Shown: piece after piece, positions 11,754-16,099 of the stretch
Layout: the number at the start of each line of letters is the position of its first letter
How positions within the stretch are numbered: the first letter of the stretch is position 1
Assembly: GCA_963847625.1 (NCBI GenBank)
Contig: CAWKAR010000027.1
Coordinates: 128,001-192,000 of the forward strand
Direction: 5' to 3'
Origin: a candidate division FCPU426 bacterium
GTDB taxonomy: Bacteria; Oederibacteriota; Muellerivitia; Muellerivitales; Muellerivitaceae
DNA: 64,000 nt
Made by a program: the position numbers and the translations under genes
The notes under the pieces: generated by a model
Told to the model about the DNA's origin: nothing
What the model saw: the letters and a program-made list of their open reading frames with translations, nothing else
The model's database searches: none

Positions 11754-11860
11754 TTTTAGTGGAAGTTTTAAATTTTGCTTTGGGTTTTAAAACAAAGAAG
11801 TTACTAACCATACAAATTAGGTAATAAACGTATTTGGGTAGTGGGTCAGTTTGAAATAGG

Positions 11861-11892
11861 TGCTTGACCGGTCATCAATCTAGGTTTATCCT
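11861..11892 (+). promoter_or_regulatory. Sigma70-like promoter with palindromic operator over -35
   Basis: TTGACC-17 bp-TATCCT; TGACCGGTCA palindrome; ATG 6 nt after -10 with no SD. Confidence 0.6.
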
Positions 11893-11898
11893 TGATTT

Positions 11899-12135
11899 AT
11901 GAAAAAACAAAAAGATGAAAACGAAATAGCTTTTAACATCGTTCAAAAAGCTACTCAAAGCGAATCAACTCCCAGCAAAGATTTAATCAGTAAGATTATG
12001 ACTGAAATGGGACGTAAAGGCGGTTTAAAGGGCGGCAAGGCTAGGGCTGAAAAACTATCGTCCTATCAAAAAACTGAAATAGCTCGTAAAGCCGCAAAAG
12101 CACGTTGGAATAAAAACCCTAAAAAACCACAATAG
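11899..12135 (+). CDS. Small basic protein (GRKGGLKGGKARA; histone-H1-like/KGG type)
   Basis: 78 aa Lys/Arg-rich with GRKGGLKGGKARAEKLS..EIARKAAKARW motif, which I recall occurring next to IS1-like transposases. Confidence 0.8.
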   Translation: MKKQKDENEIAFNIVQKATQSESTPSKDLISKIMTEMGRKGGLKGGKARAEKLSSYQKTEIARKAAKARWNKNPKKPQ

Positions 12136-12434
12136 GTGGATATCCTTGAGATATCATATGGATATCCACTTTCCATATTGGAAACAGGGTTATGTTATGC
12201 CAATAACATCATTTAATGTCACATGTCATGTAATATAATGCGGTAAATAGAAAAATTTACTTCCCGCCTCAAAATCTCTTAAAAAACAGCCATTTATAAG
12301 CAAAAATATCGAAAAAATTCTTTTGACAATACTATCCCTAGTGGTATATAAACCAAAATAGGTTGTTTTAAAGGAGAAAAAACGATGAGAAGAGGTGAAA
12401 CCGCCGGTTTTTAGAGTACGGCGGGAACATAAAT

Positions 12435-12580
12435 GAAAAAAGGGAAAGCGCTCTAGTTTGACCGCCAGGACGCTTTCCCTTACTCACTACTTTTTGGTGG
12501 GGTGTCTGCAACGATGAGGCGGATTGTTTATCCGAGATTCGTTTAGGCTAAGGGTAAAACCCTCAACCCCACCACCACTT
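12435..12580 (-). ncRNA. Candidate structured small RNA inside the transposon
   Basis: Minus-strand TTGACA(12610-12615)-17-TATTAG; 9-bp closing stem 12495-12503/12566-12574 with inner hairpins; 11-bp terminator stem 12440-12450/12471-12481 with U-tract. Confidence 0.5.
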
Positions 12581-12660
12581 ATAGACCTAATAACCCATTG
12601 ATCTGTTCGTGTCAACTCTTTTTTAAAAACCGATTAATTTTAAAGGATAAATATTAGTTT

Positions 12661-12693
12661 ATGCTTGACCGGTTATGCATGAAGTGATATGCT
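12661..12693 (+). promoter_or_regulatory. Transposase promoter with the same palindromic operator
   Basis: ATGCTTGACCGGTTATGCAT near-palindrome; TTGACC-17-TATGCT with TGn extension; GAGGTG RBS before ATG 12712. Confidence 0.65.
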
Positions 12694-12711
12694 TTAATCG
12701 AGGTGAAGAAA

Positions 12712-13563
12712 ATGAATAAACTCAATCAAGAAAAACAAGCGCAGGTTATTCAAGCTCTCGTTGAGGGTTGTTCTATCCGTTCAACGTCACGTATGACCGG
12801 CGTTGCCAAGGGAACGATCTTAAAACTATTGGCTGATGTTGGAAAGGCTTGTGAAAAATTTCACAACGAAAATGTCAAAGGCATTTATGCTCAACGGGTT
12901 CAATGTGATGAAATTTGGGCTTTCTGTTATGCCAAGGATAAAAATCTTCCTGCCCAATATAGGACTACTGAAGGAATGGGAAGCGTTTGGACTTTTACGG
13001 CAATTGAAGCCGATTCAAAACTTTGTATCAACTGGAAAGTAGGACATAGAGACGTTGAAACGGCTTTAGCATTTATGAAAGATTTAAAAAGCCGTTGTAA
13101 GGCTAGGATTCAATTAACAACGGATGCATGGCAAAAATTTTATAATGCGGTTTTTTATTCTTTTGGACAAAACGTGGATTATGCCATGTTACAAAAAGAA
13201 TATTTAGGTCAAGACCCTAAAATTCCAGGTGGCCGATATAGTCCGCCAACGGTAACAGGTTTAAAGAAAACAATCATCAATGGGAAACCAAACGAGGATT
13301 ATATTTCTACAAGTTTTGTAGAACGCCAAAATTTAAATATGCGAATGAGTATGAGGCGGTTTACTCGCTTAACAAATGCCTTTAGTAAGAAATATGAAAA
13401 CCTAAAATTTTCCATTGCTCTTCATTTTTTTTATTATAACTTTTGTCGGATTCATCAATCGTTACGGACAACACCAGCAATGGAAGCGGGACTTACAAAT
13501 CGAGTGTGGGAAATAAAAGATTTATTGTTGTTGATTGAAAACCAAAAATATTTAGTAGCTTAA
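12712..13563 (+). CDS. IS1-family transposase (single ORF, HTH + DDE)
   Basis: EGCSIRSTSRMTGVAKGTI HTH; QCDEIW, TTDAW, VERQNLNMR..RRFTRLTNAFSKK, HQSLRTTPAM. Confidence 0.92.
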   Translation: MNKLNQEKQAQVIQALVEGCSIRSTSRMTGVAKGTILKLLADVGKACEKFHNENVKGIYAQRVQCDEIWAFCYAKDKNLPAQYRTTEGMGSVWTFTAIEADSKLCINWKVGHRDVETALAFMKDLKSRCKARIQLTTDAWQKFYNAVFYSFGQNVDYAMLQKEYLGQDPKIPGGRYSPPTVTGLKKTIINGKPNEDYISTSFVERQNLNMRMSMRRFTRLTNAFSKKYENLKFSIALHFFYYNFCRIHQSLRTTPAMEAGLTNRVWEIKDLLLLIENQKYLVA

Positions 13564-13564
13564 T

Positions 13565-13983
13565 TTATATTCTCACCCCTTTTCCCAAATAACTAGCCAA
13601 AACATCTTTAATAATTTGGACTTCATCGGGGTCGGTTATAAAAGGATGTTCCAGCCCATTTAATAAATCACTAACTGTCGATGCCCTTAATTTTCCCCTG
13701 TAATATTCGTCCCCTTTTTTATTTGTCTATCAAAGAGTGAAATTATTTCCCCAAAATATAAAAAACTATCATACTCTAAAAAAGGATATTCTCTTTTTTT
13801 CACATCGACATTATCGGGAGAACCAAAATCATCGGTATTGATTAGAAGAAATCTAGCTTGACCCAAAGAAATACAATATTTTGGTTTATCTTCCGAGGTT
13901 TCTTTTAGTTCTTCTTTTTTACAGGGGATTTTATAAATATGGCCAATTGGAATTTGAGAAAGCCATATTTTTTCATTTTGCAT
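13565..13983 (-). CDS. Putative toxin of the Panacea pair, split by a -1 frameshift near 13714-13720
   Basis: 98-aa ORF (KPKYCI..FLLINT..YPFLEYDSF, PemK-like pattern) directly after the Panacea gene; -1 frame at A_AAA_AAG stays open to TAA at 13565. Confidence 0.6.
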
Positions 13984-14571
13984 TTAATGATCTTTAATAA
14001 ATGAAACTAATTCCTTTGAGAGTTTTGAGTGGGGCACATCTTTAAAATCAATAATTTGAGTTTCTAACAAATCCTCAAAATACATATTTCCCCTTTTTCC
14101 ATGCTCTCTATTCTTCCAGCGATCTTTATATATTTCGTCGTGAGTGTTTTCAATTATTTGTTTATTATAAAGTTTATCTACTTTTTCAAATGCCCAATTA
14201 AGGGCGAGTTTATCGCTTTCAGATAATTTTGTTATAGGTTTGTTTTCAATTAAATGAATATCTTTTGCGCCGATTTTTTTAATTGTAGACTGATTAATTC
14301 CTACACCTTTTAAGAAATCCAAATATTCTTTATCGCTTTTTAAAAAATTATACAATTCGGAATTAACAGGTCCAAATTCCATTGCATAATATGTCCCCCC
14401 GAAAATTGGACGGCCATAATTTAATAAATGATATTTATCGGCATAATAAACAGTTTTAATTAACCGAAACATTTCATTTGGATTCTTTTTTTCCAAAAGA
14501 AGCGTAAGAGCATCAATTAATTTAAATGGGTTGTGTTTGAAATTTAAACGGGAGGTTTGGCGATCTGCCAT
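13984..14571 (-). CDS. Panacea (SocA/DUF4065) domain antitoxin
   Basis: LIKTVYYADKYHLLNYGRPI.G..YYAMEFGPV.SELY, LSESD, TH motifs; alternative start 14643. Confidence 0.88.
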   Translation of the reverse strand: MADRQTSRLNFKHNPFKLIDALTLLLEKKNPNEMFRLIKTVYYADKYHLLNYGRPIFGGTYYAMEFGPVNSELYNFLKSDKEYLDFLKGVGINQSTIKKIGAKDIHLIENKPITKLSESDKLALNWAFEKVDKLYNKQIIENTHDEIYKDRWKNREHGKRGNMYFEDLLETQIIDFKDVPHSKLSKELVSFIKDH

Positions 14572-14650
14572 GCCTTTTTTAATACAATTGTCTTTGGCGT
14601 TTGGGGCGAAAAATCCGAACCATCTAAAGAGTTTGTTTCTCATATACTAG

Positions 14651-15845
14651 TGACCTTCCCCCAATGTTTGATCCAAATTTAAGTTAGTTAAGGCCCAACT
14701 TTTCGGCCTTTGCTTCCATTGGGGTTTTTCCCCCCAAACTGCTGTGCGGTCTCTGCCAGTTATACACCTGCCTCCACCAATCCACGACTACCTGGGCCTC
14801 CGCTTTTGAAAGAAAAATTTCTTGGTTCAGGCACTCATCCCTAAACTTTCCGTTGAAACTTTCGATGAATCCATTCTGCCATGGACTCCCTGGTTCGATA
14901 TATAGCACCTCTACGCCCTTCTCCTCAAGCCAGTTCCTCAGTTCTTTCGCCACGAACTCTGGCCCGTTGTCCACCCGCAGGCACTTTGGTGTCCCGTACT
15001 CCGTCATCAACTCGTCCAGCGTCTCCAGCACGTCCCGGCTTCTCATTCGCTTCTCCGCCCGGATCTCCAAGCATTCCCTAAATCCTTCATCCAACACCGT
15101 CAAAAACTTCACCTTTCCCCCGAACCATGTCAGGTCATGCACGAAGTCCATCGTCCACACCTCGTTGGAACCCAAAGCCGGGTGGGGCCTTCTCCATTCC
15201 GTCGGAACCCTCTTCTTCCTGGGTCTCCTGCGCGGTAATTGAAGCCCTGCTACCTGGTAGAGCCTCTCCACCCGCTTGTGATTCACATCAAGGCCTCTGC
15301 GTTCCAACATCCACAACATCCGAGGGCTTCCGAAACGTCGGTTTCTTTGCGCTAACTTAACCATTTCCTGCAGGATCACCTGGTTCAACGGATCTTCTGG
15401 CTGGGCCTCATATCGAAAACTCGATCGATTTACCCCAAGAACATCACAGGCTCGTCTTTCCGGTACTTCCTGAGCCTTCAGGGCTTCCACCATGCCTTTT
15501 TGCTCCTCGATCAATACCCCTTTTTTTTATGTGCTCTTGGAGAACCTGAATAGCCAGGGCCTGATCACCCGCTAACTGCTTGAGTTTCCGGTTTTCTTCT
15601 TCCAGCTGTTTGATGCGGTGGACTTCGGAAACTCCAAGGCTTCCGTACATGCGTTTCCAGCGGTAGTAAGTCTGCTCGGAAATGCCATGCTTTCGGAGAA
15701 CTTCCTCAACGGCGGGAGCTTTCTCCGCCTCGCGGAGAATAGCCACTATCTGCTCAGATAAAAACCGTTTCTTTGCCATCTTTCCCCTCCCGATCTATAA
15801 TCCAAAACTAACATATTTTTGGATCAGTTTTCGGGGGAAAGGTCA
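14651..15845 (-). mobile_element. IS3-family insertion sequence, copy 1 (nested)
   Basis: TG...CA imperfect TIRs (TGACCTT.CCCC); 4-bp TSD CTAG; orfA 15779 and orfB 14684-15514 (rve DDE); A8 at the frameshift site versus A9 in copy 2. Confidence 0.95.
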
Positions 15846-16010
15846 CTAGAGTAAACGGAAACTATACTAAAAAGTCAAGTATCCCCAAAAACTACATATT
15901 TGTCCTGATAATTCAAACTGACCCACTACCCGTATTTGTACTATTCTACATATTTGAATTCAAAATTTTGTTCAACCTTCTAATTCCCCTTAAATTTCAA
16001 TGTTTTCAAT

Positions 16011-16026
16011 TGGCATGAAACTCGCT
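16011..16026 (+). promoter_or_regulatory. Sigma54 -24/-12 promoter of amtB1
   Basis: TGGCATGAAACTCGCT, GG-N10-GC spacing, upstream of an ammonium transporter. Confidence 0.7.
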
Positions 16027-16099
16027 TAATCAAAAAGAGCATCGGTGGGGTCCCTGGGGAAAGGGGCATAGCCAATTTTCAATCAAGGAGCGGGGAGAA

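Follow-up and report, generated by a model that had tools for sequence, protein, structure and literature searches.

The window analysed here, a stretch of 64,000 nucleotides from a candidate division FCPU426 bacterium, contains a mobile element at positions 11837–15930 (4094 bp) that is flanked by identical target site duplications (TSDs) of 8 bp (Table 1). Its terminal inverted repeats (TIRs) agree at 19 of 19 bases, or at 22 of 23 when extended, and without a nested IS3-family element of 1195 bp, which has its own 4-bp TSD, it measures 2895 bp. The GC content, IS3 excluded, is 0.35, compared with 0.52 for the window. The ends, the TSD and the length agree with a preliminary description of the locus made from the sequence alone, as does the gene order: a 78-aa open reading frame (ORF), a non-coding block, a transposase gene and, convergent to the latter, a Panacea gene followed by a 98-aa ORF.

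We regard this element as probably a single-copy IS1-related transposon, in which a transposase and a small protein, the latter a likely repressor of its own gene, form a core controlled through a shared operator, and in which a passenger toxin–antitoxin (TA) pair of the PanA/MazF-like type is frameshifted, interrupted by IS3 and likely inactive. The element has defined ends and belongs to a family in which the small gene keeps its position, an operator recurs ahead of the core genes and TA- or defence-like cargo varies; the passenger of the window copy bears two lesions.

Table 1. Features of the element (window positions)
Feature	Positions	Strand	Remarks
Left TSD (8 bp)	11829..11836	+	CGTATTTG, same as 15931-15938
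Left TIR, 19 bp, GG start	11837..11855	+	Family consensus common to several phyla
Operator 1, palindrome	11860..11879	+	14/18 to consensus; overlaps -35 of small-gene promoter
78-aa basic protein gene, left-end family gene, likely repressor	11899..12135	+	Homologues, fixed position, model
Non-coding block, 567 bp	12136..12702	n/a	Between 78-aa gene and transposase
Promoter-like stretch	12302..12353	+	TTGACA 12323, one NrdR-box-like palindrome 12329-12344; then ribosome-binding site and 9-codon ORF 12385-12414
GC-rich hairpin with U6 tail	12436..12479	-	Sequence and fold; likely intrinsic terminator
82-nt structured element	12496..12577	+	8-bp terminal stem, ACCA end; weakly tRNA-like, 8/4-type branch
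Operator 2, palindrome	12661..12680	+	16/18; overlaps -35 of transposase promoter; top match in 4.43-Mb genome
IS1-related DDE transposase, single ORF, intact	12703..13563	+	Likely start ATG 12712; N-terminal helix-turn-helix (HTH); D69, D141, E207
MazF/PemK-like PanT toxin gene, frameshifted	13565..13983	-	A6G4 run 13711-13720; 98-aa ORF stops at 13687
PanA, stand-alone Panacea antitoxin	13984..14643	-	195 aa from ATG 14571, or 219 aa; stop adjoins toxin ATG
Nested IS3-family element	14651..15845	-	TSD CTAG; 19 near-identical genome copies
Right TIR	15912..15930	-	Pairs with left TIR
Right TSD	15931..15938	+	CGTATTTG, same as left TSD

Copy number and empty site

The element occurs once in the 4.43-Mb host assembly, and a host transposase paralogue with 41% identity (G000:C23:41730-42551, on contig C23) is without the family TIRs. 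It lies between a TPR gene on one side and an ammonium transporter gene on the other. These flanking genes are only 0.6–0.9 kb apart in four genomes of the family, and the one same-genus genome available (G001) is without the element at the orthologous site, so that the empty site which the preliminary description proposed to seek in relatives was found. The perfect ends, together with the intact transposase gene, point to a recent insertion.

An IS1-related transposase and its family

The best profile matches of the transposase, NF033558 (E = 8.5e-16, 58.5 bits, cut-off 100) and PF03400 (E = 8e-4, 20.2 bits, cut-off 24.1), both lie below their cut-offs, and plasmid homologues with 50–53% identity carry the annotation 'IS1 family transposase'. 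The residues D69, D141 and E207 are conserved in 100% of 87 homologues, the HTH occupies residues 6–45, and no cysteine is conserved at ≥90%, which leaves no zinc finger. Because the protein is encoded by one ORF (286 aa, with neither an insA/insB overlap nor an A6C frameshift) and has no zinc finger, features of the IS1 type element fail.

Our comparison covered 123 transposase loci, found in genomes, in metagenomes, on plasmids and in relatives; the window locus and some duplicates are part of this count. Both TIRs and a TSD were present in 42 of these loci (TSD of 8 bp in 38 and of 9 bp in 4), and the remainder includes many short contigs and partial matches. Adding viral and same-phylum loci brings the total to 54 distinct complete elements of 1264–4224 bp that share the same TIR; they occur in Acidobacteria, Bacteroidota, Proteobacteria, Nitrospirota, Chloroflexota and other phyla. 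Since these relatives carry their genes inside the same TIRs, the proposal of an IS1-related single-transposase element bounded by TIRs and a TSD holds, and the objection that the genes might not be bounded by the TIRs in relatives fails. Three complete TIR/TSD elements of 1.3–1.9 kb (L190, L196 and L252), one of them with a tRNA-Leu gene, contain the small gene and no transposase; these are non-autonomous derivatives.

The small basic protein

When conserved and variable parts were tabulated across the family, as the preliminary description had suggested, the transposase and the gene of the 78-aa basic protein were fixed and the remaining genes variable; these two genes are the fixed core of the family. 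Among 56 loci with a left TIR, the small gene lies on the + strand within 500 bp of it in 43, and in the other 13 it is inverted (6), found at 506 bp (1), represented only by the N-terminus of a P63C protein (2) or missing (4). In the reverse test, starting from the small gene, 95 of 96 loci matched the profile, 40 of them at full length; a TIR (≥13/17) stands at most 600 bp upstream in 37 of these 40, with a transposase also in the fetched stretch in 25. The 55 partial loci match in the C-terminal half only and are mostly without an element.

The protein contains 20 lysine and arginine and 8 aspartate and glutamate residues, and at least 7576 homologues were found among 8000 candidates scored. 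Its relatives are automatically labelled 'histone H1' in GenBank and Atlas. The earlier label 'KGG-type' reflects resemblance alone, given that the protein matches no Pfam family and that KGG is absent among the Pfam families matched by any of 130 homologues at E ≤ 0.1. No PDB match was obtained, and a search with a single seed found no link of the small gene to IS1595. The predicted model consists of four helices (pLDDT 78, pTM 0.37).

PHROG 2384 matches the C-terminal half of the protein alone. The C-terminal motif also makes up the N-terminus of P63C proteins (L002, L016, L063, L089 and L096; PHROG 2384), and the promoters of P63C genes contain palindromes with similar half-sites and longer spacers.

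A palindromic operator shared by the core genes

A 20-bp palindrome (consensus ATGCTTGA-NCGN-TCAAGCAT) stands as a direct repeat ahead of both core genes. At the small gene it overlaps the –35 of a promoter (TTGACC at 11864, TATCCT ending at 11892) whose transcript is likely leaderless. Across the family, operator sites scoring at least 13/18 precede 33 of 76 transposases and accompany 19 of 46 starts of the small gene, compared with 0.3% in shuffles. It covers the –35, the –10 or the first codons of the small gene, and this variety of registers argues that it is more than promoter letters. Only nine sites in the host genome reach 14/18, the best of which is that at 12661, so that a host regulon is unlikely and a protein of the element is the likely binder. 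One sub-lineage, whose small protein is divergent, has a different motif in 8 of 8 related loci. The conserved operator supports the self-regulation that the preliminary description had proposed.

As to which protein binds, we lean slightly towards the small protein, which is basic and helical. In the mechanism that we envisage from these patterns, the transposase would bind the TIRs through its HTH and insert with an 8-bp duplication, and a dimer of the small protein would bind the palindrome over its own –35 and over the transposase promoter, repressing both core genes and taking the role of InsA in IS1. A separate repressor would make sense in an element whose single ORF cannot yield InsA by frameshifting. 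Alternatively, though we consider it unlikely, the N-terminal HTH of the transposase may read the palindrome, with the small protein serving as a non-specific DNA-binding or structural helper of transposition. Among 49 loci, operator similarity follows the transposase a little more closely than it does the small protein (partial r of 0.39 and 0.33, with kin non-independent), and the binder is therefore not singled out by it; moreover, the IS1 repressor has its HTH in common with the transposase, according to passages of PMC12428005, and the sequence AAACTGA, resembling the inner TIR, stands beside the palindrome in several transposase promoters (noted by eye, uncounted). However, the HTH has to recognise the TIR, which the palindrome does not resemble; the palindrome extends over the start of the small gene as well; and three complete elements without the small gene (L014, L015 and L106) are also without the palindrome.

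Besides these correlations, several findings count against the small protein as a repressor acting at a family operator. The sequences that were scored are also those from which the consensus was read by eye, and this consensus overlaps –35 and –10 letters; 43 of the 76 transposase promoters score below 13, and 24 of the 54 complete elements have no site of at least 13. In addition, the model of the small protein gave no Foldseek match, its best structural Z being 4.0 with an rmsd of 11.5 over 70 residues.

A frameshifted and interrupted PanA/MazF-like passenger

The Panacea protein matches PF13274 (E = 6e-19, 69.4 bits, cut-off 25.7), and its gene is co-oriented with that of the toxin. A Panacea TA pair had been described at the locus, and the PanA antitoxin and a MazF/PemK-like PanT toxin were both recovered; the toxin ORF is not intact, the 98-aa ORF being frameshifted. 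The closest plasmid and phage PanA homologues are followed by genes of 118–164 aa, one of which is annotated as MazF-like, and the wider toxin family was sampled through 34 PanA loci. When the 1225 six-frame segments of the window were searched with a profile of ten partners of PanA homologues, the 98-aa ORF was the single match (E = 1.4e-6, profile positions 5–87 of 136). Past the A6G4 run, the –1 frame (13568–13726) stays free of stops for about 45 residues and ends 1 nt from the transposase stop, and its summed score against the C-termini of 15 homologues was 364, compared with 297 ± 18 for shuffles (0 of 2000 as high). All 15 homologues are single ORFs of 96–164 aa. We take the 98-aa ORF to be the cut-off product of a longer, frameshifted toxin gene, with the C-terminal helices predicted in the –1 frame. 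A separate 11.9-kb contig on record encodes the very same 98-aa protein, and this speaks against an assembly error in the run.

The second lesion is the IS3 element. Inserted 8 bp ahead of the first ATG of panA, it stands between this gene and the likely promoter (TTGACT, 15878-15873). The frameshift and the separation of the operon from its promoter make it likely that the PanA/MazF-like passenger of the window copy is inactive. Together with the PADLOC search, which gave 0 matches for four window proteins at E ≤ 0.01, these lesions leave the working addiction or anti-phage module of the preliminary description unsupported for this copy.

A still active TA module seems doubtful to us, yet it deserves to be set against these findings: programmed –1 frameshifting could supply a low dose of full-length toxin, or the frameshift could be an assembly error, and transcription could come from IS3 read-through. 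A-AAA-AAG is a classic slippery heptamer, and the toxin run has this register in the zero frame, upstream of a stop-free tail ending beside the transposase stop. Homopolymer lengths differ among the IS3 copies of the same assembly, and this one-base variation (11 of 19 copies) makes a sequencing error in the toxin run possible. The reconstruction of a longer toxin is also challenged by its details: taken singly, the tail reached P < 0.05 for only 4 of the 15 homologues; when the run was read through with X, one profile rose from 35.3 to 40.8 bits and the other was unchanged; and BLASTP of either toxin half against the toxin of the related element L241 was not significant. Against an active module stand the single ORFs of all 15 homologues, the independent record of the same 98-aa product, the loss of the likely promoter to IS3 and the absence, by eye, of an obvious stimulator hairpin or Shine–Dalgarno sequence.

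An intact PanA/MazF-like pair occurs in L241 (4580-8600). This complete element of 4021 bp belongs to a viral contig, where tRNA-like genes surround the insertion. It has the same layout as the window element, with an operator copy (8544) ahead of panA, and among 51 elements only these two carry PanA with a MazF-like gene. The intact ancestor of the window element likely used PanA–PanT as a passenger for addiction or abortive infection, a role still open to the pair in L241, and L241 is the best candidate for an experimental test of the pair.

Other searches added little. Word-index searches with the toxin and PanA returned only themselves, a PDB sequence search and a plasmid tblastn gave nothing useful, and Atlas gave no more than a hint, PemK being assigned to 13% of one cluster. 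The single-sequence model of the toxin (pLDDT 45) was unusable for fold comparison. A second Panacea gene of the host lies at G000:C46:4497-4808. The slippery run of IS3 (15521-15528) has 8 T here and 9 T in 11 of the 19 copies, a difference that would change its frameshift requirement.

Variable cargo in related elements

The cargo varies among elements and is often TA- or defence-like. Relatives carry XRE-HTH/ImmA genes, P63C genes, DNA methylases with Mrr or HNH, PIN with DUF433, GmrSD with HEPN, an SDH protease, PemK, HigB and many unknowns (115 of 123 and 60 of 82 cargo ORFs listed were searched, nearly all those omitted being likely shadow ORFs). PADLOC matches in this cargo comprise RmrA and PD-Lambda-2_B (both for XRE-HTH/ImmA), NsnA/PD-T4-2_A, MTase_II and PDC-M34A. 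ARAGORN made 18 tRNA calls in 135 regions, 11 of them distinct and located inside the TIRs or between the small gene and the transposase; the others are 5 duplicates and 2 that are not placeable inside elements. Serine tRNAs are normally long-armed, and five loci (L021, L027, L080, L116 and L121) carry element-borne short-arm tRNAs that are Ser by anticodon (ACT/GCT); these are possible mis-decoding tRNAs.

The non-coding block

The preliminary description saw between the core genes a 570-bp structured non-coding block and in it a candidate non-coding RNA. Its structure was confirmed, as it folds better than 100 of 100 shuffles (z –6.7). As a conserved part of the element, however, the RNA is not supported: no homologue was found in 99 genomes of the phylum beyond a 52-bp promoter, neither nhmmer on the fetched loci nor four pattern scans of viral sequences gave one, and the block is the largest ORF-free gap of 51 elements (571 bp, followed by 532 and 488). 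Rather than belonging to the core, it is likely a middle cargo slot that a non-coding passenger has filled.

The promoter-like stretch is 87% identical to a promoter of a host ribonucleotide reductase gene. In 6 of 8 host reductase promoters, two boxes stand 32 bp apart by a pattern of our own, in agreement with the tandem boxes 31–32 bp apart given for NrdR sites in passages of PMC2892513; the element is without a second box. Its NrdR-like box scores 11.7 bits, a range (≥11) reached by 101 sites in the genome, and such boxes are not a feature of the family elements. The hairpin with the U6 tail was unlisted by a terminator scan whose loop limit is 8 nt. The 82-nt element, which ends 125 nt before the transposase match, has the 8-bp stem, 3 of 4 T-stem pairs and the ACCA end, and is without the TTC of a T-loop and the GG of a D-loop. 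Rfam gave chance-level matches only, both for the whole transposon and for the 141-nt core, and ARAGORN found no tRNA in the window. A type I TA system in the block was considered and rejected, the + strand ORFs being of 7–10 codons and not hydrophobic.

Two readings of the block can be weighed. It is possible, although unlikely in our judgement, that the 82-nt element is a degenerate or regulatory tRNA-derived gene with an 8/4 branch like that of allo-tRNAs, expressed from the NrdR-box promoter and lodged at the place where odd tRNAs are found in relatives. Its acceptor-like stem with ACCA is accompanied by a 7-nt anticodon-like loop and a G53-T54..A58..C61 register, and among the 31 upstream regions that yielded a cloverleaf the window sequence ranks sixth, behind five real tRNAs and above 60 of 60 shuffles. 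The 11 tRNAs inside or at the core of family elements are in line with such an origin, as are allo-tRNAs and their pseudogenes near TA systems and transposon genes, reported in passages of PMC5389517. However, apart from the failure of ARAGORN and Rfam to detect it and the lack of a homologue, an 8-bp stem with NCCA also turns up by chance at a rate of 3% (92 times in 3000 shuffles, 90 times among 3000 random windows of the genome), the cloverleaf is far weaker than the best fold (–16.6 versus –36.4 kcal/mol), and neither the long D-stem with tetraloop nor the G73/U73 of allo-tRNAs is present. Rather improbable, too, is a minus-strand small RNA of about 145 nt, running from a TTGACA at 12615-12610 to the U6 terminator at 12436, antisense to the + strand leader and damping read-through into the transposase; the 82-nt element would be its 5' part. 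The –35, the fold (z –5.3) and the terminator all lie on the minus strand, which is the usual direction of middle-slot cargo in relatives, but the –10 is weak, no homologue was found, and the transposase has its own promoter downstream. The remaining probability falls to a decayed cargo remnant or another origin.

Comparison with known systems

The element shares with IS1 of E. coli (InsA/InsAB') the GG-starting TIRs, a TSD of 8–9 bp and a transposase with HTH and DDE domains, the best matches of which, though below cut-off, are to IS1 profiles. The predicted repressor control of the transposase promoter is likewise similar to that by InsA, which represses the transposase promoter P-IS1 according to parts of PMC12428005. 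It differs in its one ORF without frameshift, in the missing zinc finger and in the spacing of catalytic residues (72 + 66 residues); it measures 2.9 kb, compared with 768 bp, and adds an unrelated small gene, a separate palindromic operator and passenger genes.

Transporter IS (tIS) are likewise marked by passenger genes that lie inside the TIRs of an IS with one transposase; sections of PMC9330008 and PMC7986276 define them as IS derivatives with passenger genes. The literature searched, in which few subscription journals were covered, yielded no account of tIS with a second conserved core gene or an operator. Siguier, Gagnevin and Chandler are said to have reported in 2009 an ISMhu11 group of the IS1 family, in which the zinc finger is missing and regulators, methylases or nucleases lie on either side of the transposase, a pattern in keeping with the cargo of the present family. 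Named members of that group with the small gene may already exist.

The passenger pair resembles PanAT systems with EndoA/PemK/MazF-like PanTs, in that a stand-alone Panacea gene immediately precedes the gene of a small toxin for which CDD and Pfam have no match. It differs in lying inside the TIRs of one transposase and in its frameshifted toxin. In portions of PMC8832971, MazF-like PanTs are validated and PanATs are located near transposases, and an excerpt of PMC10440598 states that a stand-alone Panacea protein neutralises its toxin directly. An undescribed system, for which the preliminary description had seen in this element the best candidate of the window, is therefore not supported as far as the cargo is concerned; what looks undescribed is the two-gene core of the family with its operator. 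Loci similar to those found here may already be listed among the PanAT loci in Dataset S1 of PMC8832971 and the allo-tRNA loci in Figure 4/S5-S6 of PMC5389517. TA pairs are likewise passengers of unit transposons of the Tn3 family (cited in sections of PMC8832971 and PMC9330008), from which the window element differs in its transposase family, in having no resolvase and in carrying the TA pair as a variable passenger.

With the allo-tRNAs of Mukai et al. (portions of PMC5389517) the 82-nt element shares an 8-bp stem within what may be a 12-bp acceptor branch, a long variable region and a neighbourhood of TA and transposon genes. In addition to the D-stem and cloverleaf energy discussed above, it differs in having A73 and no canonical T-loop, and in going undetected by tRNA models.

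The window locus is a partly decayed member, and the family matters more. If the core is as we propose, thousands of small proteins now named 'hypothetical' or 'histone H1' would be recognised as the regulator of a single transposon group, and the TIR with the small gene would provide a handle to harvest cargo slots for untested defence and TA genes. A broader reading, which we think quite improbable as a whole, would see in the family a very large, cross-phylum group of IS1-related transposons in which InsA has given way to a small repressor of their own, a helical DNA-binding protein of unclassified type that recognises the 20-bp palindrome. The group would act as an all-purpose vehicle for TA genes, defence genes and odd tRNAs, and in the window copy a tRNA-derived RNA would stand under an NrdR-box promoter. 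That promoter would then tie expression of the RNA to depletion of deoxynucleotides, for example in phage attack.

Observations around the insertion site

In the same-genus genome G001, a TIR-like sequence (14/17; L050:2770-2800) directly precedes the orthologous target 8-mer, although the element is absent. TIR-like sequences also adjoin the left TSD in 2 of the 54 complete elements (left flanks of L051 and L196; background 0.2%), and the left flank of the window element itself scores 8/17. These flanks hint at repeated insertion beside old ends. A different IS of about 1 kb with an 8-bp TSD lies in G001 about 150 bp from the orthologous site (L050:1650-2650); from its motifs, it is presumably IS1595-like. 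The intergenic stretch upstream of the ammonium transporter gene seems to attract IS elements. At 16010–16027 of the window, upstream of this gene, there is what we take to be a sigma-54-like –24/–12 motif, which is kept in G001. The element lies about 80 bp upstream of this motif and may separate a sigma-54-like ammonium-transporter promoter from its enhancer sites.

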